From Bacilli bacterium (GTDB lineage Bacteria; Bacillota_I; Bacilli_A; RFN20; CAG-288): 57,619 nt of DNA. This document shows, piece after piece, positions 8,208 through 28,025 of the stretch (its first letter is position 1; every line of letters starts with the position of its first letter). The notes beneath the pieces were generated by a model. The model did not search any database. It was not told the DNA's origin and worked only from the letters and a program-made list of their open reading frames with translations. The position numbers and the translations under genes were made by a program. The stretch is from the NCBI GenBank assembly GCA_017470005.1, contig JAFUFH010000091.1, forward strand, positions 1-57,619. The letters are read 5' to 3'.

Positions 8208-9509
8208 ATGTCATATCAGGTACAAAAAGATGATTGTGGGAAAGCGGTCGTTCGTGAATTATTGACGACAGTGTTTAAAGATGATGCGTTTCAAACACGG
8301 AATTTGATTTCGGATTGTAAAAACTTTAAATCGATACGAGAAGAATTAGAACGAAATGAATGCAAATATACTTCTTATGAAGTGGAGGATGTTGCTTATC
8401 TTAGTAAGAATCAGCTTCCCTGTATCGCCCAAGTGATGAATGGGGATGTCGCTCATTTTGTGATGATTAAAAAGATCAGCAAGAAAGATGTCACTATTTT
8501 CGATCCTCAATTTGGAAATTATTCTCTTTCTTTGGATGAATTCTCTCAAGTGTTTTTAAACAAAGTGTTACTCAAGGATACCATCGGGAAGAAACCAGAT
8601 GTGTTATCTACCGATATCTTTAAAAAGAGTGAGAAGGTTCTCTACTTCTCTCTCTTTGTTTTGGAAAGTGCCTCACTCTGTCTTTTGTTCTCATCCACCA
8701 ATATCACAGGTGGTTTCATCTTTTCTATTGTTATGGCGGTTGTTTTCTTATCTTTCATCTTAATACAAAATGTGTTCAATTCTATGGTTAGGAAAAGATT
8801 AGATATCGAATTGATGATTCCGTATCTGAGAGTCAGCAAGAACAAAGAAGATTATTCTCACCTTTCTAGTCTTGTCAATGAAAGCATTGGAAAGATGTCA
8901 AAGAGTGTCTCTTATGCTGCCATTTGTGTTGGGGTTATCTTTCTCATCTTCATGAATTCGTTGTATATGTCTTTGTTGACATTGATCTCTTTGAGTTTTT
9001 CTTTTTTACGCTTTCCTCTCGAATACAAAAAGAATTACACCAATCGTTATTGTTCCATCCATGAAGGAATCTTTTTAAACGAATTAGGAAAGAATGATGA
9101 TGTCGCACTTTCCCATTATCAGAAGGCCAAAAGAGCTGCACTTGGTTTGGTATCTTTGATCTTAGCTAGCTGGGTATTAGAAGCTATCGCTTTGATTTCT
9201 ATCATTTTGATTCGCATGGTCACCGTAGATGGGATGCATTTGAATGTCTTTGTTTTCTACTTTGGTTTAGCGATGTCTTTGAGTGTCAATTTACGTCAAT
9301 TATATTCCGCATTGCTCGGGGATCATAAGCGTATTCGTGCGATAAATTCATTAAGTTATGATTTAGGAGTTTTTTTACTTAAAAGTAAAATAAAATTAGA
9401 TTATACTATTAAGGCTGATGAAGGAGTCATTGACCGAAATGAAAGAAAAGCACGTGTTGGATTATCTCGACAAGATGTCGAAGGGGAGACGATTAAAGAA
9501 AATATTTGA
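8208..9509 (+). CDS. C39 cysteine peptidase domain fused to a multi-pass membrane region, no ATPase domain
   Basis: N-terminal Q..DCG, AHFVMI and IFDPQ motifs, then about 5-6 hydrophobic segments; GGAGG RBS. Confidence 0.7.
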   Translation: MSYQVQKDDCGKAVVRELLTTVFKDDAFQTRNLISDCKNFKSIREELERNECKYTSYEVEDVAYLSKNQLPCIAQVMNGDVAHFVMIKKISKKDVTIFDPQFGNYSLSLDEFSQVFLNKVLLKDTIGKKPDVLSTDIFKKSEKVLYFSLFVLESASLCLLFSSTNITGGFIFSIVMAVVFLSFILIQNVFNSMVRKRLDIELMIPYLRVSKNKEDYSHLSSLVNESIGKMSKSVSYAAICVGVIFLIFMNSLYMSLLTLISLSFSFLRFPLEYKKNYTNRYCSIHEGIFLNELGKNDDVALSHYQKAKRAALGLVSLILASWVLEAIALISIILIRMVTVDGMHLNVFVFYFGLAMSLSVNLRQLYSALLGDHKRIRAINSLSYDLGVFLLKSKIKLDYTIKADEGVIDRNERKARVGLSRQDVEGETIKENI

Positions 9510-10308
9510 AATCGTCTATGAACACACCTTGAAGGTGTTAGGAAAGAAGGGAGATTATTGTGTCTCTTTATCTTTGGTTTCCAAAGAAGAGATTCATGTT
9601 CTCAACAAACAATATCGCGATGTAGATCGTCCTACGGATGTTCTCACTTTTGCTTTCTTAGAAGGAGACGATGCCATTGATTTACCTGTCTGTGATTTAG
9701 GTAGCATCATCATCTCTCCGGAAGTCGCTTTAGAACAAGCCAAATCTTTCTCTCATCCCGAAGAGAGAGAATTAGCTTTCCTTTTCATTCACGGCCTTCT
9801 TCACGCTTTTGGTTATGACCATCATCGTAGCGAAGAGGAAGCCACCATCATGTTTGCTCTTCAAAACAAGATTCTGAATTCCCTGCCTTATCACTTCTTC
9901 GCTTCGGAAAACAAAGTGAAGAAATTGTTGCTTGATGCTCAAAGCAAGGCGAGAGCTCCTTACTCAAAATTCAGAGTCGGTGCTCTTCTTACCACAAAGG
10001 ATGGAAAGCTTCATCAAGGCTTCAACATTGAAAATAGCGCTTATGGATCTTGTATGTGTGGAGAAAGAGTCGCCTTATATCACACCTATGCTAGCGGATA
10101 TCAGAAAGAAGATATCGCTTGTCTTGACTTGATCACGGACAGTGAAAATGTCGGAACTCCTTGTGGAGAATGCAGACAAGTGATGTCGGAATTGATGGAT
10201 AGAGATTGCCCTGTTTTCATCTATAACAAAGACATGAGCAAATGCAGAGTGATGACCGTGGAAGAACTTCTTCCTGCTGCTTTCTCCAGTGAGGATTTAG
10301 GATTATGA
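9439..10308 (+). CDS. ybeY-cdd: YbeY rRNA maturation RNase fused to cytidine deaminase
   Basis: DRPTDVLTF and HGLLHAFGYDH (YbeY), then PYSKFRVGA, NIENSAY, CGER and PCGECRQ (Cdd); AAGGAG at 9421-9426 favours ATG 9439 over 9418. Confidence 0.88.
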   Translation: MKEKHVLDYLDKMSKGRRLKKIFEIVYEHTLKVLGKKGDYCVSLSLVSKEEIHVLNKQYRDVDRPTDVLTFAFLEGDDAIDLPVCDLGSIIISPEVALEQAKSFSHPEERELAFLFIHGLLHAFGYDHHRSEEEATIMFALQNKILNSLPYHFFASENKVKKLLLDAQSKARAPYSKFRVGALLTTKDGKLHQGFNIENSAYGSCMCGERVALYHTYASGYQKEDIACLDLITDSENVGTPCGECRQVMSELMDRDCPVFIYNKDMSKCRVMTVEELLPAAFSSEDLGL

Positions 10309-20068: not shown

Positions 20069-22279
20069 ATGAAGATCAACAATCAGATATATACTTTCAA
20101 CGATGTTAAGGATGTCTATTCGTCATACATTCATGATGAAGAAGATTTAAAGCGCATTGAGAAGGCGTATCTTTTTGCTGAGAAAAAACATGAAGGCCAA
20201 TTCCGTAAAAGCGGGGATCCTTATATCTCCCACTGTATCGGTGTGGCTTATATTTTAGCGGGCTTACAAGTCGGCCCTAAGACAATTATGACCGGTTTCC
20301 TTCACGATACGATTGAAGATACCGATACCACTAGAGAAGAGATCGAAAAAGAATTTGGATCCGAAGTTGCCACATTAGTGGAAGCTTTGACCAAAGTCAC
20401 TCGACTCTCCGATTATAAGAATGTCGAATTCACTGCCGAAAACCACAGAAAGATTTTTGTGGCGATGGCAAAAGACGTGCGTGCCATCATCGTCAAATTG
20501 GCTGACCGTCTTCACAATATGAGAACTCTTCAGTTCCAACCGAGAGAAAAACAGATAAGAATCTCTAGAGAGACTCTCGATGTTTATGAACCTATCGCGC
20601 ACCGCTTAGGTTTATATAAGATTCAAACCGAATTAGAAGAATTATCTCTTTGGTATTTAGAACCAGAAAAGTTTACCGAAATCGAAAATAAGATTGCGGA
20701 AGTAGAAAAAGATGCCAAAGCATCTTTAAGTGAATTAAGACAACAGCTCATCTCTATTTTGAATCGTTCTCACATTCCTTTCTCTATCTCTGCTCGTGTC
20801 AAAAGCGTCTATTCCATCTACAAAAAGATGTATACCAAGAATTACGCTTTTGATCAGATCTATGATTTGATGGCCCTTCGTATCATCACCGAAACGGAAC
20901 AGAACTGTTATGAAATCTTAGGCTATGTCCACGCAAACTACAAACCAGTTCCTGGACGTTTTAAAGATTATATCGCTATGCCTAAGCCCAATATGTATCA
21001 ATCCCTTCACACCACCATTGTCTCTAACAAAGGTCACGTCTTTGAAATTCAAATTCGTACCCAGGCGATGGATGAGACCGCAGAAGGTGGTGTCGCTGCT
21101 CACTGGCGTTATAAAGAAGGCACCAAATACGATCCTAAAGTCGAGCAAGTAGAAATTGAGAATCAATTGCACTGGTTCAAAGACTTTGTCTCCATGACAG
21201 AAGAAGGTGGAGATGGCAATGCTCGCGATTACATGGACTCTTTGTCTCATGACATCTTTGATGCCAATGTCTATGTTTTCACTCCCAAAGGAAACGTCAT
21301 CTGTCTTCCTAACGGCGCGACTCCTATCGATTTTGCTTATCGTATTCACTCCGATTTAGGCGAACACTTACAAGGAGCGAGAGTCAACGGTATCTTAGTT
21401 CCTATCTCGACTTCTTTAAAGACTGGCGATGTGGTGGAAGTCATCACCAATAAGAACTCTAACCCGAACTCTGAATGGCTCAATATCGCTAAGACCAACT
21501 TTGCAAAATCTAAGATTCGTAAATACTTGATTCACCAGAATGCGGATTATGTCAGAGAAGATAACATCAAAAAGGGTAGACAAACCTTGTTAGATTCCTT
21601 CCGTGAAAGAAAGATCAACATCGATTTGAGCAAAGTCTTAACTCGTCAACTCTTTGATAAACTCAATGTCAAAGATGCCGATGACCTCTTCTTGATGATC
21701 AACGGAAAGACCATTCTTCCTTATCAAGTGATTGAAGCTTCGGATCAAATCGTTTATGGCGGTAAGATGTCTGATGAAGAGATTCAATCTCAAATCAATA
21801 ACCGCGTCTACAAGAGAAAGAATACTTCCGATGCCGTCATCCTTGCTAATGGTGACACCGTCTTAACCTCTTTGGCCGCTTGTTGTACTCCTGTTCCTGG
21901 CGATGATATCATCGGCTTTGTCTCCACCGGACAAGGCGTGAAAGTTCACCGTGTGGATTGCCCCAATGTCAACCGTGAAGGCGTTCAAGACCGTTTGATT
22001 CAAGTTATGTGGAACCCCAATGTCACAAAGCTTGGAGAATACCCTGTTGACTTGGCGGTGGAAGGTCACGATCGCCCTGGATTACTTGTCGATATCATGA
22101 ATACACTTTCTGCTAATGATGCAAAAGTGAATAAGATTCAAGCCAAATATAACCCCTCTTTGAACACATCTACTATCTCTATGACCATCCTAGTTTCAGA
22201 GAAAGAACAGCTCTCTCACTTCCTCCATGCTCTCACCAATGTTAAAGGCGTTTTTGCCATCAAGAGAGTCCATCATTAA
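20069..22279 (+). CDS. rel: Bifunctional (p)ppGpp synthetase/hydrolase
   Basis: HD domain (LHDTIEDT), synthetase RFKDYIAMPK and YQSLHT, TGS, CC and ACT domains. Confidence 0.96.
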   Translation: MKINNQIYTFNDVKDVYSSYIHDEEDLKRIEKAYLFAEKKHEGQFRKSGDPYISHCIGVAYILAGLQVGPKTIMTGFLHDTIEDTDTTREEIEKEFGSEVATLVEALTKVTRLSDYKNVEFTAENHRKIFVAMAKDVRAIIVKLADRLHNMRTLQFQPREKQIRISRETLDVYEPIAHRLGLYKIQTELEELSLWYLEPEKFTEIENKIAEVEKDAKASLSELRQQLISILNRSHIPFSISARVKSVYSIYKKMYTKNYAFDQIYDLMALRIITETEQNCYEILGYVHANYKPVPGRFKDYIAMPKPNMYQSLHTTIVSNKGHVFEIQIRTQAMDETAEGGVAAHWRYKEGTKYDPKVEQVEIENQLHWFKDFVSMTEEGGDGNARDYMDSLSHDIFDANVYVFTPKGNVICLPNGATPIDFAYRIHSDLGEHLQGARVNGILVPISTSLKTGDVVEVITNKNSNPNSEWLNIAKTNFAKSKIRKYLIHQNADYVREDNIKKGRQTLLDSFRERKINIDLSKVLTRQLFDKLNVKDADDLFLMINGKTILPYQVIEASDQIVYGGKMSDEEIQSQINNRVYKRKNTSDAVILANGDTVLTSLAACCTPVPGDDIIGFVSTGQGVKVHRVDCPNVNREGVQDRLIQVMWNPNVTKLGEYPVDLAVEGHDRPGLLVDIMNTLSANDAKVNKIQAKYNPSLNTSTISMTILVSEKEQLSHFLHALTNVKGVFAIKRVHH

Positions 22280-22360
22280 AACACCTGGTGAGAAATGTAC
22301 TGGCTCATTTTGTGCCATCTCCACTTTCGACAAGTTGAACAGCGGAAAACCCGCATGACA

Positions 22361-22810
22361 TTAATTTGCATTATCAAAACAATCGTCGAGCTGCCTAATA
22401 AAACTCAAATTGGCACATACATCGCGAATGCATTTACATATTTTCGGAGTTGGTTCAAATCTAAATTCCAATCCATCAATTGTTGTGATTATTATGCGGA
22501 CATGAAGATAACCATAAAAAGATTTACATTTTCTTGTTAGTTTTACGGTTTTAACATCGTTCCAACAAATTGTTTGCTTTTTTGCTGATATGCCTTCTTT
22601 CCCGATGAACATTGGAACATTCCACAATCGAATAAAGGAAAGAATGAATAGCGATAAATCAGCAGCCCAAACAATCCCGAGCAAAAGAAGAATCACAATT
22701 AGTACATCTCCTTTTAAAAGCTTAAATGTCGGAATCGCCAAGAGCGGGATGAACATAATCGTCAACGATTGAAAGACACATAGAGTTGGTCTCGGAATAA
22801 ATCGCTTCAT
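22361..22810 (-). CDS. Small two-TM membrane protein, candidate immunity protein
   Basis: GGAGG RBS then ATG 22810 (MKRFIPRP...), ATGA overlap with the stop of an upstream start-less frame; two hydrophobic helices then a soluble domain. Confidence 0.65.
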   Translation of the reverse strand: MKRFIPRPTLCVFQSLTIMFIPLLAIPTFKLLKGDVLIVILLLLGIVWAADLSLFILSFIRLWNVPMFIGKEGISAKKQTICWNDVKTVKLTRKCKSFYGYLHVRIIITTIDGLEFRFEPTPKICKCIRDVCANLSFIRQLDDCFDNAN

Positions 22811-22977
22811 TTTTGCCTCCCCCTCCAATACACATTGATAATGCTATTGCTAATGCCAAGCAGGGCGTAGTCGTAGGATAAGGCGAATTGCGCGGCCTTA
22901 TTAAATTGAATATCGCCCCAAGGAACCGCATTTTCAAGCCAAGAAAGTCCAAACGCAATTCCAGCCGATGCACCCGC
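22807..22977 (-). pseudogene. Start-less toxin C-terminal tip remnant A
   Basis: 56 open codons AGASAGIAFGLSWLEN...YWRGRQK* with no start codon; stop overlaps the next ATG. Confidence 0.5.
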
Positions 22978-23092
22978 TTATGTTGGTCTTTAAATTGAAC
23001 TATAGCACAACATTGGGGTAAATGCAATGCTCCTATCTTTAATCTAAGCACTTATCAAACATGGATTTCTCTGTCAAAGAGAGATAATCGTT
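22978..23092 (-). repeat. 115-bp direct repeat copy 1 containing a sigmaA-type promoter
   Basis: 100/115 identical, gapless, to 26532-26646; minus strand TTGCAT (23027-23022), 17-nt spacer, TGc-TATAGT (23004-22999). Confidence 0.9.
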
Positions 23093-23789
23093 ATGCGGAA
23101 ATGATTTCATCCTCATCGGGTTGGACAGGAAAATCGTTGGTGCTATATATACTAAACCATCCGATAGGAGCAACATAATCCTTTATGTCAGAGTCCTTCA
23201 ATATTTTCTTTGGCGCAAAATTCGTGTTGAAGAACACATTTCCCAAGGAACCCACATCGCACATCTTTATATATCGGATGGTGAAGGAAGAATCGTCCAG
23301 CAATGCATATTCAAACTCACCGGAATTGTTGTATTGAGATACATAAGAGAACAAAGGAAAGAGATCATGAGATCTCAGCGGCTTTTTTCCCCATGTTCCT
23401 TCTGTGTTCTTTATCCGATTGGCTTCCATATGATAGGTCGTTTCGTCCATACTCCATTCCAAATATGCCTGCCCACGCTTGTACATATAATCAGCAAACA
23501 AAGGATCTACAAAATATGCCATTGACGCACTTCCGCTGGTTAAGGCATCAGGAAAAATTGCACACCCTCGCAAATCCGAAACAATAGTTTGCTTATCATA
23601 ATCCTCTGGCTGAATTGGGTTTATTTCCCCTTTCATTGGGGTTTTCTTATATCCACTTAAATCCGAATTATGGAGCTCAAGTCTAATAGAGTTCCCCCAA
23701 AACGAAACCATTACCACTGTGAAAAACAAGGTAAAGTGGGCAACAACTGCTCCCAGGACAATCAAGACGATTTTCTTCCATTTCTTCAT
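23091..23789 (-). CDS. N-terminally anchored extracytoplasmic protein, candidate immunity protein
   Basis: MKKWKKIVLIVLG... signal anchor at ATG 23789, which overlaps (ATGA) the stop of tip remnant B. Confidence 0.65.
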   Translation of the reverse strand: MKKWKKIVLIVLGAVVAHFTLFFTVVMVSFWGNSIRLELHNSDLSGYKKTPMKGEINPIQPEDYDKQTIVSDLRGCAIFPDALTSGSASMAYFVDPLFADYMYKRGQAYLEWSMDETTYHMEANRIKNTEGTWGKKPLRSHDLFPLFSYVSQYNNSGEFEYALLDDSSFTIRYIKMCDVGSLGNVFFNTNFAPKKILKDSDIKDYVAPIGWFSIYSTNDFPVQPDEDEIISA

Positions 23790-23950
23790 ATTAGACTTTC
23801 CCACATGTTTTTCAGCCAGTTCTTTGAAAGTTCCATATCCGCATCTTTTGCGTGTTCGAACTTTTCCCAACACCAGGGTGATATTTTATTATACGCCCTC
23901 AAGGTTTCATCCTCCGCTGTAATTGTTCCACCAAGAGCAAAGACATAGAT
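23786..23950 (-). pseudogene. Start-less toxin tip remnant B
   Basis: 54 open codons IYVFALGG...EHAKDADMELSKNWLKNMWESLI*. Confidence 0.5.
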
Positions 23951-23951
23951 C

Positions 23952-24437
23952 CTATCGTTTTATTTCTTCAAATGGTGGAACAAATCCATTGTAGAACAAT
24001 TTGATGAAACTTTCACCTTTTTCGTTATAAGGGACAAAAACTGCGGAGTTTTTTCTAATTCGATCTTCAGTACTGCTTTTTCCATCAAGCAGCACATAAA
24101 AAGTCCCATCTCGATACAAGGATACAATCTTGATTTCCTGAATAGAACTAATTGAAATTTCTTTCTTGAAGCCGAAAAAGATGCCACGTCGTTTAACCAT
24201 CGTGTCATCGAAACTAACGATATTGCATGATCTGTTGATGAAGATAATAATAAACACAAGAAGTAAAAGGCTTGAAAAATGTAACAGAATCCAAATTACC
24301 ATCGACAAAACAACTATTGGTTTTCAAGAAAAAGAATAAGCAACCAATACATTAAAACCTATCATAAGAGCAATGCCAATGAAGAAGATGAAAAGCCCAT
24401 CAAGGCCAACATAAATGCATTTCTTTCTGTTTTTCAT
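23952..24437 (-). pseudogene. Two-TM membrane protein interrupted by one in-frame TGA (24326-24324)
   Basis: ATG 24437 MKNRKK...AYSFS*KPIVVLSMVIW... continues in frame into the 118-aa ORF of the track. Confidence 0.65.
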
Positions 24438-24473
24438 GTTTTGTATTTTTCCTTCAAAAATCATCTAATAATG

Positions 24474-24557
24474 TCAACAACAATCGTTAATCCAGAAGGC
24501 ATAACGTTTTAAAACCAACAAAAGGAATCGTTTAATTTGTTTATCAGTCTTTCTCAT
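24474..24557 (-). pseudogene. Truncated 27-codon partner gene behind tip remnant C
   Basis: GGAGGTGG RBS and TGATG overlap; MRKTDKQIKRFLLLVLKRYAFWINDCC*. Confidence 0.4.
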
Positions 24558-24900
24558 CAAAACCACCTCCAGTGATTCATCAGCCAAAATTTCCAATCGT
24601 GTTCTTCATCATCTGAATCAAAGTAAATGTCAGCATTTCTAGCTGATTCATAAGACAGAAGGCTATAAGCAATTAGATGCCAAACCCATTCACTCATAAC
24701 TCTTTCTATATCGATTGGATATCCTTTTTTTTCAATTTTGAAAGAAATTTTCTCATCTGTTTAGAAGAATATTTCCATGTATCAATTTTTTAAATTTGTC
24801 CTTTAACGGAAGCTGATTTATCACTCAACTAATAATCAATGCGTTTACCATCTGACAAGTCTACATAATTATAAACATTTTCTGAATAATCAGATAAATC
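24557..24900 (-). pseudogene. Degraded toxin tip remnant C
   Basis: Reads ...KIDTWKYSSKQMRKFLSKLKK/GYPIDIERVMSEWVWHLIAYSLLSYESARNADIY...WRWF* across two in-frame stops and an A8 frameshift. Confidence 0.5.
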
Positions 24901-24987
24901 AGTAGGAGACTTAAGAAAATAGATACAATATGACCTATATTTTATCCCGCTGAAAAATCAATAAATATCAGCAGTCTCAAGAACACA

Positions 24988-25389
24988 TTAAAATTTAAAT
25001 AGAAAAATTTTATTATCTTCTGCCTTAATCATGGCGCGACCTTGCGTGGATAAGATGATGATTGGTCCATAGGAGTCTAACATCATCTTTCTTGCTTCCG
25101 TTGGTGCAATCGTGATTCCTTTTTGATAATAATCAAAAACTTGGAGAGTTCCATTCATATATTCAGTTGGTATGTGCTCACTATCCGTAATGGAAACCAA
25201 TGCTTTTGTTTTGCAAAGTGATTCAGTATCATGAGCAAACCTGGAAATAGCAATAGCATATTTCTTAGGATTCGAAAACTCAAAAGCAACTCTTTGTCGC
25301 CTTTCCTCAATGACACAGGCTTGTACGAATGTTTGCAATAGATTTCTTTTATCACTTTTATAGTCCGTCATTTTCTTCATCCTTTCCAT
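24988..25389 (-). CDS. Small soluble hypothetical protein, candidate immunity protein
   Basis: 133-aa ORF directly behind the RHS-core remnant; exact start among three close Met codons is uncertain. Confidence 0.6.
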   Translation of the reverse strand: MERMKKMTDYKSDKRNLLQTFVQACVIEERRQRVAFEFSNPKKYAIAISRFAHDTESLCKTKALVSITDSEHIPTEYMNGTLQVFDYYQKGITIAPTEARKMMLDSYGPIIILSTQGRAMIKAEDNKIFLFKF

Positions 25390-25429
25390 CTAAAACTGCC
25401 AGTAAGCAAAAATAATAATGCCAGTGTTT

Positions 25430-25621
25430 AAATCTAGGATCATAATATCTGCTTAAAAGATAATAGAGGGAACTTTCCTTTTCATAATAGTACCCCTATA
25501 TAAGAACGGATTGATTTGTCTGATGTATTCTTTAGTGGAATCAAGAAGTGTGGATGAAACTTCTCCATATGGTGAGTGTGCATATTTCACAATTGTTTTC
25601 CCTGCTTCTTCCCTGATTATT
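25430..25621 (-). pseudogene. RHS repeat-associated core remnant with a frameshift
   Basis: IVKYAHSPYGEV...INPFLYRG, then after a one-base shift YYYEKESSLYYLLSRYYDP, matching the RHS core pattern NPFRYRGYYYD.E.GLYYL.SRYY.P. Confidence 0.8.
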
Positions 25622-26476
25622 CTATATATTGAAATATTCAGCAAAACTTTGCTGATGAATATCCATCGCATAAGAATCAGGCGAAAAGTTTACAGTGAAC
25701 TGAATTCCACCTATTGTACCAAAATCGTCGATGGAAAATAATAGGGCGGCCGATTGTCCTCCACTCCAAGGATCGTAATCTTTTTCGAACATGCAGTATA
25801 TAGATCCGTCAACGGCTCTTCGGCACTTGGAAGAGTAAAATCCCCATTTATTCATCAAGGCCAGGAGCTCTGCATCAATATTTTCTTTTGGAAACTCGAT
25901 GATATTCTCGTTAGGAAGACAGATATCATAATCCTGTTCTCCTTCTTTTATATTCCCAAATGAATCATAGAAAGAATTCAGTGTAGTCAAATCGTAAATT
26001 TCTTCCACTTCACCGGTCAAAAAATCTATTTGAAAATTTTGAACATTATCACCATAACGTCTCAGTAGAAACTTGGTCCCCTGAAGTCCCCTGAATCCAA
26101 AATCTCCTTTGGAGGAAAAGAGTGTTCTCTGTTTAATAAAATCCCAATTTGTTGTATAAATTTCTATTCCACGAGATACATCATAAAAAAGAAATTCATC
26201 TTTAGAGACCGCAATAGTGCACATGCTATCATGATTATAAACAAATCTACCATCTGGGAATTGGTAAGTGCCTGTGTAATGATCATAAATAACGGAAAAT
26301 CCATCATCTGACCACTTTTTAAAATCTTCCATTAAAGCCGTTTTCTCTTCCTTGACATGCACTTTAGCTAAAGACATCATGACAAACATATAAACAAAGA
26401 ACGAAATCAAAAGACCAATAGGAATAAAAGTAAAAAAGGGCCACTTCTTTATCCTACGCTTATTCTTTGAAGTCAT
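25622..26476 (-). CDS. N-terminally anchored extracytoplasmic protein, candidate immunity protein
   Basis: GGAGG RBS, basic N-terminus plus one TM helix, 284 aa; directly downstream of repeat copy 2 promoter. Confidence 0.7.
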   Translation of the reverse strand: MTSKNKRRIKKWPFFTFIPIGLLISFFVYMFVMMSLAKVHVKEEKTALMEDFKKWSDDGFSVIYDHYTGTYQFPDGRFVYNHDSMCTIAVSKDEFLFYDVSRGIEIYTTNWDFIKQRTLFSSKGDFGFRGLQGTKFLLRRYGDNVQNFQIDFLTGEVEEIYDLTTLNSFYDSFGNIKEGEQDYDICLPNENIIEFPKENIDAELLALMNKWGFYSSKCRRAVDGSIYCMFEKDYDPWSGGQSAALLFSIDDFGTIGGIQFTVNFSPDSYAMDIHQQSFAEYFNI

Positions 26477-26531
26477 TTCCCCAACCTCCGATCATTAATT
26501 CATAAATCCACCAAAGGATGTACTGAACCTT

Positions 26532-26646
26532 TTATGTTGGACTTTAAGTAGAACTATAGCACAACATTGGGGTATATGCAACGCTCCTGTCTTCAACAGG
26601 AGCACCTATCAGACATGGATTTCTCTGTCAAAGAGAGATGATTGTT
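26532..26646 (-). repeat. 115-bp direct repeat copy 2 containing a sigmaA-type promoter and a perfect hairpin
   Basis: Minus strand TTGCAT (26581-26576), 17 nt, TATAGT (26558-26553); GCTCCTGT-CTTCA-ACAGGAGC inverted repeat intact in this copy. Confidence 0.9.
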
Positions 26647-26765
26647 CTGCTATAAGTTATTCGCATTTAATATGAAAGTTTATATTTTTTTACAATCTTT
26701 AATAAATTAAAGATTTTGAAAACGAAATGATATATAATTATGTGTCAATTAAAAGGAGGAGACGT

Positions 26766-28025
26766 ATGGCTCAACAATTCAAAAGACCACGCGGTACCAA
26801 CGATTATTTTGGAGAAGATGAAGCGATTCTTCAAAATATGAGAGATATCTTGAATCAAGAAACCGCGCTTTATGGCACACAATTCATCGAATTACCCATG
26901 TTTGAGGAGAATGCTCTCTTCCATCGCACGGTTGGGGAATCTAGTGATATTGTCACCAAAGAGACATTTGATTTAGAAAGAAGAGGAGATAAAGATTACA
27001 CCCTTCGTCCTGAATTCACCGCTTCTGTCTCTCGTGCTGTCATCGAAGGAAAATGGTATACCACTCCCGATATGCCTCTTCGTATCTCTTATTGTGGACC
27101 TGTGTTCCGTTATGAGAGACCACAGACGGGTAGACTTCGTCAGTTCAATCAATTCGGTGTGGAATTCATCGACACCAAGATTGATTTGAATTCTACTTTA
27201 GATGCTTTCCTTCTCTCTTTGAGAGGGGCGGAAAAAGTCTTGGGTTGCAAAGTCAAAGCCAAGATCAATTTCTTAGGATCTTTCGAATCGAGAGAAAATT
27301 ATAAGAAAGAATTACAAGGTTTCTTTGCTCCCATGATTTCTGAAATGTGCGAGGATTGCCAAAGAAGATATCAAATCAACCCTTTGAGAATCTTAGACTG
27401 CAAAGTTCAAGAGGACCAAGAGAGATGCAAAGGCGCTCCTAGAGTCAGAGATTATTTGAGCCAAGAAGACCAAGAAGAATTTGCCAATATTTGCAAAGCT
27501 TTGGATCAGATTGGAATCGAATATGTCATCGATGATGATCTTGTCCGTGGATTAGATTATTACACGGGTCTTGTCTGGGAACTCTATGAAGCGGACCACG
27601 AAAAGATCGGCGCTATCGGTGGCGGTGGAAAATATTCCTCTCTCATGAAGAATATCGGTGGCCCAGAAATGGAAGGTATCGGTTTCTCTTTGGGATTGGA
27701 AAGACTTCTCTTTGCCATGTCGGATGAGAGAAAGAAAGAATTGGCTTCCACTACTTCTATCGATGTCTTCATCATCGACTTCAAAAGAGATGGTACCAGC
27801 ATGGAAATTGCGGATAAGTTGAGAAAAGAAGGATATTCTGTTCTCTTCTCTTCCTTCTCTAGAGCTCTTGGTGGAGCCTTAAAGATGGCGGATAGAAAAA
27901 GAGCCAAGAGAGTCATCATCGCCGAAAGTGATGGCACCTATAAGCTCAAAGATATGTTTAGTCGTCAACAAGAAGAATTCGAGAATAAAGAAAGCTTACT
28001 CTTGTGTCTATTAAGTAAGGAGTGA
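26766..28025 (+). CDS. hisS: Histidyl-tRNA synthetase
   Basis: PRGTND, LRPEFTAS, FRYERPQTGR.RQFNQFG, LVRGLDYYTG, GGGKY; AGGAGG RBS favours ATG 26766. Confidence 0.95.
   Translation: MAQQFKRPRGTNDYFGEDEAILQNMRDILNQETALYGTQFIELPMFEENALFHRTVGESSDIVTKETFDLERRGDKDYTLRPEFTASVSRAVIEGKWYTTPDMPLRISYCGPVFRYERPQTGRLRQFNQFGVEFIDTKIDLNSTLDAFLLSLRGAEKVLGCKVKAKINFLGSFESRENYKKELQGFFAPMISEMCEDCQRRYQINPLRILDCKVQEDQERCKGAPRVRDYLSQEDQEEFANICKALDQIGIEYVIDDDLVRGLDYYTGLVWELYEADHEKIGAIGGGGKYSSLMKNIGGPEMEGIGFSLGLERLLFAMSDERKKELASTTSIDVFIIDFKRDGTSMEIADKLRKEGYSVLFSSFSRALGGALKMADRKRAKRVIIAESDGTYKLKDMFSRQQEEFENKESLLLCLLSKE

Follow-up and report, generated by a model that had tools for sequence, protein, structure and literature searches.

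A probable toxin-less remnant of an RHS polymorphic-toxin locus between rel and hisS of an uncultured gut Bacilli genome

Introduction

Orphan immunity genes are a feature of several bacterial toxin systems. In Listeria, the 1656-aa Rhs protein LrhA is paired with LrhI, a 261-aa partner that has an N-terminal transmembrane (TM) helix, belongs to no family and also occurs as orphan copies (PMC10327511). In S. aureus, the glycine-zipper toxin EsxX meets its antidote in ExiCD, polytopic membrane proteins that neutralise it and are found as orphans as well (PMC12744356), and the immunity arrays of V. cholerae arise by sequential displacement (PMC5361080).

The locus described here lies in a 57.6-kb stretch of DNA (the window, meaning the whole stretch that was analysed) from an uncultured, small-genome gut Bacilli of the RF39-type lineage, which agrees with the reduced-genome host of an original prediction made on this DNA. 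We consider it likely that the island is a toxin-less remnant of an RHS (YD-repeat) polymorphic-toxin locus, and that its partner genes most likely encode immunity proteins.

Anatomy of the rel-hisS interval

The island fills a 4.4-kb interval (22280-26726) between two housekeeping genes and holds five genes, p284, p127, p161, p232 and p149, interspersed with an RHS-core fragment and start-less toxin tails:

20069-22279, plus: rel, housekeeping gene flanking the island
22361-22810, minus: p149, two TM segments and a small domain; partner (immunity position) of a glycine-rich tip
22811-22977, minus: last 56 codons of a glycine-rich hydrophobic toxin tip (AGASAGIAFGLSW..INVYWRGRQK, stop)
22978-23096, minus: D1 copy A, a 119-nt direct repeat, flush with the p232 stop codon
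23091-23789, minus: p232, 232 aa, N-terminal TM anchor and an unassigned domain of about 200 aa
23790-23842, minus: conserved leader before p232, ..YGTFKELAEKHVGKSN in the p232 frame and ..ELSKNWLKNMWESLI, stop, in another frame
23952-24437, minus: p161 pseudogene, two TM segments and a domain of about 90 aa
24477-24525, minus: start-less leader before p161 (..LKRYAFWINDCC, stop)
24526-24957, minus: debris, all three frames broken, no family match
24988-25389, minus: p127, ORF from 25389, end at 24988
25393-25452, minus: hydrophobic-stretch remnant (ADIMILDLNTGIIIFAYWQF, stop); in other strains the stretch joins p127 to the end of the RHS core (P0054, P0060, 190 aa)
about 25434-25620, minus: RHS-associated core fragment (KTIVKYAHSPYGEVSS..NPFLYRG / YYYEKESSLYYLLSRYYDP), TIGR03696 match
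25622-26476, minus: p284, 284 aa, N-terminal TM anchor and an unassigned domain of about 245 aa
26457-26519, minus: RHS tip remnant, last 20 or so codons (..ILWWIYELMIGGWGNDFKE, stop), overlapping the p284 start
26532-26650, minus: D1 copy B, between hisS-proximal sequence and the toxin-tip tail before p284
26727-28025, plus: hisS, housekeeping gene flanking the island

Every island ORF is on the minus strand, opposite to rel and hisS, as had been claimed for a series of co-oriented small genes facing the host operons. Four genes are full-length: p127, which is the 133-aa ORF of the original prediction, and three others (p284, p232 and p149), which is also the number that it took to be intact; p161 is broken by one TGA. 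The toxin side is destroyed, also as foreseen, with only the core fragment and tip tails kept. In tblastn with a sibling RHS protein, no complete RHS gene was found anywhere in the window, where the only RHS sequence is in two pieces, the core fragment and the tip tail before p284. The island itself yielded no recombinase or secretion gene, as expected, and no essC or other T7SS genes were seen near the locus.

How does the interval look in other genomes, a comparison that had been proposed at the outset? Only 11-142 nt separate rel from hisS in 14 related species, all with RF39-type genomes, and these have no homologues of the island; the island, inserted at a conserved junction, is therefore lineage-specific. 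Sibling strains of the same species have more to show. L007 and L019 carry, next to rel, a 1685-aa RHS protein and a 164-aa partner with two TM segments, while L005 has an RHS protein of at least 943 aa with a 149-aa tip that overlaps p284; behind p284 come p161, p232, D1, a tail, p149 and rel. Each of the two sibling RHS proteins covers the whole of TIGR03696 (E 2e-17 and 2.7e-19), and neither matches DUF6531.

Since siblings carry complete or long RHS genes in the same interval, the array is best described as a decayed, toxin-less haplotype of a resident locus, and the evidence supports its origin from a hypervariable RHS locus by tip displacement and deletion. The caveat that such an array might be just the displaced tail of a complete RHS gene thus turned out to be partly true. 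Of the acquired defence array first proposed, the orphan partners in a lineage-specific island stand, but the array was not purpose-built, and its defensive role is suggested purely by the position of the genes.

Remnants of the toxin and their partners

Once a 1-nt deletion is bridged, the core fragment gives a match to TIGR03696 (Rhs_assc_core; E=1e-6, model positions 2-45 of 76), and by tblastn it is 86% identical to residues 691-733 of RHS943. Alignment with L003 places the deletion, which breaks the frame, near 25492/25493, and locates a truncation near 25436/25437, where 199 nt of L003 are missing.

Three of the five partners have homologues directly 3' of RHS-type tips, as the idea of an immunity array had implied. 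The first is p284: by tblastn, the tip remnant at its start shares 90% identity with the 21 C-terminal residues (923-943) of the L005 RHS protein, and the overlap of p284 with the intact L005 tip puts it in the immunity position. Searches of Pfam, NCBIfam and PADLOC gave zero matches to p284, which has a 286-aa paralogue in L004 (E 4e-6).

The second is p149, whose start overlaps the stop of the glycine-rich tip fragment (ATGA). Residues 219-274 of a 274-aa tip ORF that is intact in L054 share 94.6% identity with this fragment (E 2e-35), and in L054-L056 the intact glycine-rich ORF likewise overlaps p149. The AF2 model of p149 is unusable (pLDDT 52).

The third is p161, interrupted in the window by an in-frame TGA at 24324-24326, where sibling strains have R or W; unbroken 161-aa alleles occur in these siblings (P0037; L004, L005). 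A full-length homologue with 45% identity lies in L054 directly behind an RHS core and glycine-rich tip (E 3e-41). The leader before p161 is conserved, with homology to L004 and L005 from 24525, and is probably a toxin-tip tail.

Not every broken piece has such a pedigree. The start-less fragments had all been read as RHS toxin debris, which holds for the core and the tip tails, but for 24526-24957, where a family match was sought and none found, a toxin origin is unsupported. The window, L007 and L019 share the stretch 25569-24583, and with it the debris as far as 24583; beyond it the latter two have a C-terminal fragment of an IS3-family transposase (NF033516 E=1.6e-20; rve_2 E=1e-11). The debris may accordingly be an insertion-sequence remnant rather than part of a toxin.

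The remaining partners, p127 and p232

These two genes follow RHS core ends directly in every haplotype seen (for p232 including L004, L052 and P0019), and an intact cognate toxin for either was found in none of these haplotypes. None of the five partner proteins matches a known immunity family.

The start of p127 is likely the ATG at 25371, with GGAAAGGA ahead of it, and its product is a small soluble alpha/beta protein, presumed to confer immunity. The AF2 model is confident (pLDDT 91.5), a structure search with it returned no PDB match for the fold, and the sequence has no match in Pfam or PDB. The family is rare, with 13 relatives among 1.84 billion representatives; besides the full-length ones it includes one short 74-aa match and a 192-aa protein that carries a TM extension. 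For its part, p232 is presumed to be an immunity protein; homology of its leader with L004 begins at 23842.

Could these two proteins instead be C-terminal toxin tips, made as part of the RHS protein behind a membrane-helix linker? A single ORF in P0015 and P0019 runs from the RHS core end through one TM helix and about 25 residues into p232, and the leader before p232 is in frame with the core end and helix there. Likewise, one ORF in P0054 and P0060 takes in the RHS-end remnant, two hydrophobic segments and p127. The distance from a DPxG-like motif to the first Met is about 48 residues in both cases, and all intact tips seen likewise start with a TM helix. However, each gene has a start codon and a purine-rich ribosome-binding stretch of its own, and p232 begins with a classical signal-anchor, MKKWKK and then a hydrophobic stretch. 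A p232 paralogue in L004 (226 aa, 30% identity, E 3e-12) and the full-length p127 relatives (115-138 aa) are standalone proteins, and among the relatives found none forms the C-terminus of a long toxin. Moreover, a 1-nt difference in L003 turns the p127 junction into an ATGA stop/start overlap, and behind p232 there is only the 119-nt D1, with no gene fit to be an immunity partner. Although p127 and p232 could be part of an RHS tip, we hold this to be very unlikely, and favour immunity proteins.

Cassette turnover and the D1 repeat

Cassettes are shuffled from strain to strain: four orders were seen, in the window, in L004/L052, in L005/L006 and in L007/L019/L053. Does a site-specific system move them? 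D1 might act as a recombination site or mark one end of a discrete mobile module, inserted into RHS tips in an integron-like manner. It is always flush with the p232 stop codon, and two unrelated tips are cut off exactly at its right edge; for copy A the tip is the one before p149, where L054 tip homology begins at 22979. Against this, the sole tyrosine recombinase of the window is XerD-like and 18 kb from the recombinase-free island. D1 has no terminal inverted repeats, no hairpin conserved between copies and no Rfam match, and is seen only beside p232. Just two junction types are known, which fits two old illegitimate events, and the copies are only 87% identical. We give a dedicated cassette system very little chance.

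Under the preferred reading, a decaying RHS locus, the history would have run as follows. An RHS locus would have entered an RF39-type Bacilli species at the rel-hisS junction. New modules of tip and partner would have joined it by recombination at the end of the conserved RHS core, with a left crossover through core homology and a right junction that is illegitimate or formed at a few bp of microhomology. The junctions offer 'TAG' at the 199-nt deletion, and GCAGAACAAT vs GCATAACGAT at the left edge of D1-B. Each displaced tip would have been shortened to a tail of 16-56 codons, with the gene behind it left intact. In the window strain the large RHS genes would also have been lost, leaving one core fragment, several tip tails and five partners.

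Are the partner genes still in use?

The partners would most likely protect against RHS toxins from sibling strains and other gut bacteria. With two TM segments each, p149 and p161 may act inside the membrane on glycine-rich tips that insert there, and neutralise them; p284 and p232, with a single TM anchor and an outward-facing domain, may block toxins that work on the outer side of the membrane; and p127 may act as a small soluble binder. Expression might come from a promoter-like block in D1-B, read by eye as TTGCAT (26581-26576), 17 nt and TGcTATAGT (-10 at 26558-26553), a role suggested by its sequence.

It is also conceivable that the island is pure genomic wreckage, with unused partner genes heading for deletion and an array that records past RHS turnover and gives no present protection. 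Frameshifts, deletions and debris all over the island would fit, as would the nonsense codon of p161. A consensus promoter scan found no convincing promoter: the D1-B block is not listed, and promoter-like sites are no more frequent than in shuffled sequence. Set beside rel (dN/dS 0.01-0.02), p284 (0.72-0.79) and p149 (about 1, based on few differences) may be drifting rather than selected. But p232 is clearly constrained (0.13-0.24), as is p161 (0.04-0.13, with 0.13 among intact alleles), and p127 is moderately so (0.41-0.46). Many strains keep four frames at full length, while no piece of the toxin side has escaped destruction. The p149 cassette, furthermore, has recently spread to other loci and another organism, with 98.3-98.6% identity at an eno-linked locus and 97.3-97.6% in an organism of GC 0.50-0.56 (L054-L056), which argues for selection on p149. 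On balance, wreckage is an unlikely account, and genes kept for immunity remain the reading that we prefer.

Comparison with known systems

The locus resembles enterobacterial Rhs loci in its conserved RHS core end as recombination anchor (Jackson et al. 2009, as cited in PMC5361080; Poole et al. 2011, PMC3150448; Koskiniemi et al. 2014, PMC3967940), variable tips that start after a DPxG motif, a partner gene immediately 3' and often overlapping the tip, and displaced modules that pile up downstream with a short core piece. It differs in its monoderm host, in tips that are mostly of membrane type with membrane proteins as partners, and in a window haplotype that has lost the main rhs gene and every tip, so that there can be no re-arming by recombination within the locus.

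With the T6SS orphan immunity arrays of V. cholerae (PMC5361080) it shares immunity genes that outlast the replacement of the effector, 3' remains of former effectors before orphan immunity genes, a mosaic and strain-variable make-up, and a proposed route of homology-facilitated illegitimate recombination. The carrier here, however, is RHS in a Gram-positive-type cell rather than the T6SS, and the locus sits between two housekeeping genes with secretion genes not adjacent.

The type VIIb secretion-linked LrhA/LrhI pair of Listeria (PMC10327511) also occurs in Bacillota, with an RHS protein in the range of about 1650-1690 aa and orphan partner copies in toxin-less strains; the likeness to LrhI is one of architecture only (a 230-290-aa partner with one N-terminal TM helix and an unassignable, probably extracellular domain). 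The locus here differs in that no T7SS genes such as essC are seen nearby and the sibling RHS proteins do not match DUF6531. The EsxX/ExiCD antitoxin islands of S. aureus (PMC12744356) offer glycine-rich hydrophobic tips and small multi-pass membrane partners that persist as orphans where the toxin is missing, although the carrier there is LXG/T7SS and no sequence relationship is detectable; EsxX is membrane-depolarising, and the tips here are likened to it by their glycine-rich hydrophobic sequence only.

Finally, the AID clusters of gut Bacteroidales (10.1101/471110; PMC12247911) share the gut setting, immunity arrays without cognate toxins and horizontal spread, here of one cassette 97.5% identical in an unrelated genome. 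Those clusters counter T6SS effectors and lie on mobile elements or beside a recombinase (rAID type), whereas this island has no recombinase or mobile-element backbone and derives from a resident RHS locus. Remnants of this kind are thus already known in other bacteria; the protein families found here are new.

Anatomy of the rel-hisS island

Between rel (20069-22279, +) and hisS (26727-28025, +) lie 4447 nt in which all sizeable ORFs are on the minus strand. The original prediction had described co-oriented genes opposed to the host operons, broken start-less pieces and an RHS core fragment, and this description is accurate, since ORF layout, the transmembrane (TM) scan, GC content and the absence of family matches all agree with it. 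The five partner genes are named here by protein length in residues, D1 is a 119-nt direct repeat with two copies, a tip is the variable C-terminal toxin part of an RHS protein after the DPxG motif, and a tail is the remnant of a tip's end. TM segments were counted by hydropathy scan.

Features of the island, from hisS towards rel
26532-26650: D1-B, the 119-nt repeat
26457-26519, minus: start-less tip piece of about 20-23 codons, overlapping the p284 start
25622-26476, minus: p284, one N-terminal TM segment
about 25434-25620, minus: RHS core fragment, TIGR03696 match
24988-25371, minus: p127, no TM segment (the 133-aa ORF of the original prediction starts at 25389)
24526-24957, minus: debris with all three frames broken, between p127 and the p161 leader
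between the debris and p161, minus: short conserved leader
23952-24437, minus: p161, two TM segments, interrupted at 24324-24326 by an in-frame TGA
between p161 and p232, minus: second conserved leader
23091-23789, minus: p232, one N-terminal TM segment
22978-23096: D1-A, after p232
between D1-A and p149, minus: start-less 56-codon piece
22361-22810, minus: p149, two TM segments

None of the five partner genes has an intact tip anywhere in 22280-26726. GC is 0.33-0.36 in most island genes versus 0.41 in rel, hisS and aspS. No island protein matched Pfam, NCBIfam or PADLOC, and profiles of known immunity families (Pfam Imm families, SUKH, SMI1 and the like, and PADLOC defence proteins) gave no significant match. 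Plasmid and phage matches were likewise absent, and such an origin was rejected.

Some smaller features call for comment. The 109-aa ORF at 22722-23051 is an overlap artefact spanning D1 and the p149 start. Code 4, with TGA read as Trp, was considered as a rescue for p161 and rejected: because table 11 leaves all housekeeping ORFs intact and sibling strains have CGA or TGG at this codon, the TGA is a nonsense mutation. The debris at 24526-24957 was considered as an IS3 remnant; in sibling strains the transposase matches are confined to sequence missing from the window, and the debris is left without assignment. Outside the island, 8208-9509 encodes a 433-aa protein with an N-terminal Peptidase_C39 domain of the bacteriocin-processing type (E 5.5e-14), whose gene lies just upstream of a ybeY-cdd fusion, era and recO. 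The single ORF at 9418-10308 combines YbeY endoribonuclease (E 3e-38) and cytidine deaminase (1.8e-12) domains and looks like a gene fusion.

Host lineage and origin of the island

Among common gut bacteria that remain uncultured are the RF39-type Bacilli, whose genomes are small and whose means of competition are, to our knowledge, poorly understood. Comparison of Rel places uncultured Bacilli or 'Mollicutes' MAGs and Candidatus Enterosoma nearest to the window's genome (65-79% identity); we take these MAGs to belong to the RF39-type small-genome gut lineage. The original prediction had proposed comparing the rel-hisS interval across strains. In the 14 closest genomes holding both genes, apt-rel-hisS-aspS is contiguous, the rel-hisS gap is 11-142 nt and island homologues are absent. 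Two other genomes have larger gaps, which contain a pseudouridine synthase gene or an inversion. The island is therefore an insertion specific to its lineage.

RHS genes of sibling strains

Exact-sequence look-ups retrieved strain variants of all five island genes together with their contigs. In L007 and L019, the genes for a 1685-aa RHS protein and, following it, a 164-aa two-TM protein precede rel; upstream of the RHS gene lies the same block of RHS fragment, p127 and debris as in the window, then an IS3-family transposase fragment. The latter is C-terminal (L007 2123-2446, L019, L053 1056-1358; NF033516 E 1.6e-20, rve_2 E 1e-11) and separates the p127 block from the gene for the 1685-aa RHS protein; the window has just the unassignable stretch that lies upstream of it (24583-24957). 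In L005 and L006 the order is RHS (at least 943 aa), p284, p161, p232, D1, tail, p149, rel. The L005 RHS ends '..YCRHNPVMYVDPDGKS' and is followed by a 149-residue tip whose last codons overlap the p284 start. Window 26457-26519 is all that remains of that tip, its last ~20 codons at 90% identity, and D1-B occupies the place expected for the rest of the gene.

With a 1-nt deletion near 25492/25493 bridged, the core fragment reads 'KTIVKYAHSPYGEVSSTLLDSTKEYIRQINPFLYRGYYYEKESSLYYLLSRYYDP'. It matches TIGR03696, the RHS-associated core that ends in the DPxG motif, at model positions 2-45 of 76 (E 1e-6), and its 29.1 bits fall slightly below the cut-off of 32.5 bits because it is truncated; both sibling RHS proteins match at full length (E 2e-17 and 2.7e-19). 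L003, a related 1.2-kb contig, retains 199 nt missing from the window here; in these nucleotides the core end is completed ('..GLDLYCYCRHN..') and a hydrophobic stretch continues up to the p127 start. A tblastn search of the whole 57.6-kb window with both sibling RHS proteins found no full-length YD-repeat shell protein with a C-terminal tip; the tip tail and the core fragment were the only RHS pieces. Since a full-length RHS gene is absent here yet present at the same locus in L007, L019 and L005, the window locus is a remnant, not a working toxin locus.

With regard to the tips themselves, those compared (L005 2460-2955; L007 47-613 and 6975-7553; L054 5250-5735 and 6590-7156) all start with a hydrophobic TM-like helix right after the DPxG motif, and most in this L005, L007 and L054 set are glycine-rich (11-19% Gly).

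Partner genes beside tips

Do the partner genes have homologues directly 3' of RHS genes, a check that the original prediction proposed? For p284, p149 and, through a 45% homologue, p161, an RHS-type tip immediately precedes them elsewhere; p127 and p232 occur behind broken RHS ends only. The p284 gene overlaps the L005 tip, and p149 overlaps a tip in L054 (ATGA). L054-L056 also carry an RHS core fragment and glycine-rich tip with the gene of a 158-aa protein right behind; this protein shares 45% identity with p161 along its entire length (E 3e-41), and its gene overlaps the tip in L054. Identity to intact tips reveals 3' toxin remnants directly upstream of the orphans p284 (26457-26519) and p149 (22811-22977), and the leaders ahead of p161 and p232 are plausibly displaced toxin 3' remnants as well. 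A standalone paralogue of p284 exists (286 aa, E 4e-6), GTDB species genomes hold no relatives of its family, and p161 as query returned its own cluster only. The structure model of p149 (pLDDT 52) is too poor for use, so that a 'PH-like' fold stays an impression.

Another question is the status of p127 and p232, which always come after RHS core ends; only broken ends lie upstream, and no intact cognate toxin was found for either. In four protein records (P0015, L004 133-1347; P0019; P0054; P0060, L053 146-718) one ORF runs from an RHS end through one or two membrane helices into the partner, with ~48 residues from the DPxG-like motif to the partner's first Met in both p232 and p127 ORFs. These may be chance fusions after deletion or a real mini-tip. 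Separate partner genes, presumably for immunity, are favoured for four reasons: p127 and p232 each possess a start codon of their own and a purine-rich stretch for ribosome binding; p232 has a signal-anchor at its beginning; a standalone paralogue exists for p232 (226 aa, E 3e-12), as for p284 (286 aa); and none of 13 p127 relatives is the end of a long protein.

These 13 were all that HMMER yielded in a full scan covering 1.84 billion representatives, a first search having returned near-identical relatives only. Eleven are standalone and full-length (115-138 aa), a twelfth is a short match of 74 aa, and the last, of 192 aa, has an N-terminal TM extension. The closest homologue outside the species (P0061, L049 5602-6645, 48% identity) follows an unassigned 172/186-aa gene, and no recognisable toxin was found in its neighbourhood. 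With the relatives as alignment, AlphaFold gave p127 a confident alpha/beta model (pLDDT 91.5), for which no PDB fold matched (best E 0.12, TM-score below 0.35); its sequence matches neither Pfam nor PDB, and its 12-member family no known immunity family. The p232 family was represented in JGI metagenomes by just one, near-identical locus.

Nei-Gojobori dN/dS between strains, based on small counts, is 0.01-0.02 for rel, 0.04-0.13 for p161, 0.13-0.24 for p232, 0.41-0.46 for p127, 0.72-0.79 for p284 and about 1 for p149, the last resting on very few differences. On these values some partner genes are clearly maintained; the remainder show relaxed or diversifying evolution, which is frequent among immunity genes.

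The D1 repeat and its junctions

The two D1 copies (22978-23096 and 26532-26650) are 87% identical direct repeats. D1 is seen only beside p232 and always begins directly at the stop codon of that gene; exactly at its right edge, two unrelated tips are cut off. In the simplest reading, resident tips were twice displaced by a module with p232-D1 at its end. Since the copies are only 87% identical, these events are old. The longest invariant block, TTGCAT-17 nt-TGcTATAGT, might hint at a promoter. A clear sigma-70 promoter was rejected, as a consensus scan did not list the site and promoter-like sites are no commoner than in shuffles. A structured RNA or riboswitch was rejected too: Rfam had no match in the window, and of the two copies, B has a perfect central hairpin and A a broken one.

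Where the window has D1-B, L003 (22-158) and L004 (109-244) carry a ~136-nt sequence 'X', not alignable with D1, which follows the same hisS-proximal junction 'GCAGAACAAT' and contains a 10-bp GC-rich hairpin CCTTCCTGTC..GACAGGAAGG. An L004-like haplotype could have given rise to the hisS-side junction of the window if the sequence between GCAGAACAAT and GCATAACGAT was deleted. Microhomology is visible at island junctions, and cassette order differs among haplotypes.

A cassette shared with an unrelated genome

The 677-bp cassette of tip tail and p149 (window 22979-22303) recurs at 97.3-97.6% identity in L054 (6984-7660), L055 and L056, which belong to a different organism, as their flanks carry TIM, PGK and Bax1-I genes at GC 0.56. 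The genome sharing the cassette has GC 0.50-0.56 versus 0.39 in the RF39-type genome. In these contigs an intact, glycine-rich and hydrophobic ORF of 274 aa ('..DGSGH|FPVLAAILIGLG..') runs into the cassette, and its stop codon overlaps the start of p149. The 56-aa fragment of the window is 94.6% identical (E 2e-35) to the last 56 residues of this ORF, and homology to the L054 tip starts exactly at the right edge of D1-A. Such identity, despite flanks of GC 0.56, indicates a recent transfer between unrelated organisms.

Ten further contigs (L009-L018, e.g., L009 5725-6356) carry a 632-bp version (98.3-98.6% identity) on the downstream side of eno. In this second orphan array a lipoprotein-like gene (129-273 aa) follows the cassette, and in one of the ten, L015, another RHS core fragment, 'ESSLYYLLH*YYDPKEGIYYLKSR', lies nearby at 2040-2190.

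The 677-bp unit, 97.5% identical across two genomes, and its 98% version at the eno-linked locus invite a bolder and rather unlikely reading, namely, that small cassettes of tip tail and immunity gene may pass as independent units between unrelated gut bacteria of the Gram-positive type. Such traffic would be the RHS equivalent of the acquired interbacterial defence (AID) systems of Bacteroidales, and p232-D1 would be a discrete insertion module. This module would decapitate resident tips at a fixed end and would supply a promoter for the orphan gene behind.

Significance and comparison with known systems

The locus shows that RF39-type Bacilli carry RHS toxins, that the weapon is present or absent strain by strain, that toxin-less strains retain partner genes, and that at least one partner cassette is nearly unchanged in an unrelated gut organism. 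It also supplies several uncharacterised families in immunity position, including a confidently modelled small protein without a PDB fold match, and glycine-rich tips opening with a membrane helix. A full-text search (RF39, reduced genome, Bacilli, Rhs) had no paper with both RF39 and Rhs among its top 12 matches.

How would the partners act? Architecture and precedent suggest likely candidate modes. The two-TM partners p149 and p161 would act against glycine-rich membrane tips, on the model of ExiCD, which acts against EsxX (PMC12744356). Single-pass partners with outward-facing domains would counter envelope-acting tips, on the model of LrhI, a single-pass protein proposed to counter the envelope-acting tip of LrhA (PMC10327511).

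The account of the island with the best support is that tips were displaced and sequence was then deleted, which leaves orphan genes in immunity position. Neither tip displacement nor orphan immunity arrays are new in principle: they are established in Enterobacteria, Vibrio, Listeria, Staphylococcus and Bacteroidales. The array-forming process of the island agrees with the sequential displacement model (PMC5361080) and the Rhs orphan modules (PMC3150448, PMC3967940). By contrast, the Bacteroidales AID and recombinase-associated AID arrays lie on a mobile element or beside a dedicated tyrosine recombinase, in repeat-bounded cassettes, features that the island lacks; it has no recombinase, and the nearest in the window, XerD-like, is 18 kb away. 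The host lineage, the protein families and the D1 junction are new, as are the membrane helix with which all observed tips begin and the nearly identical cassette carried by an unrelated genome.
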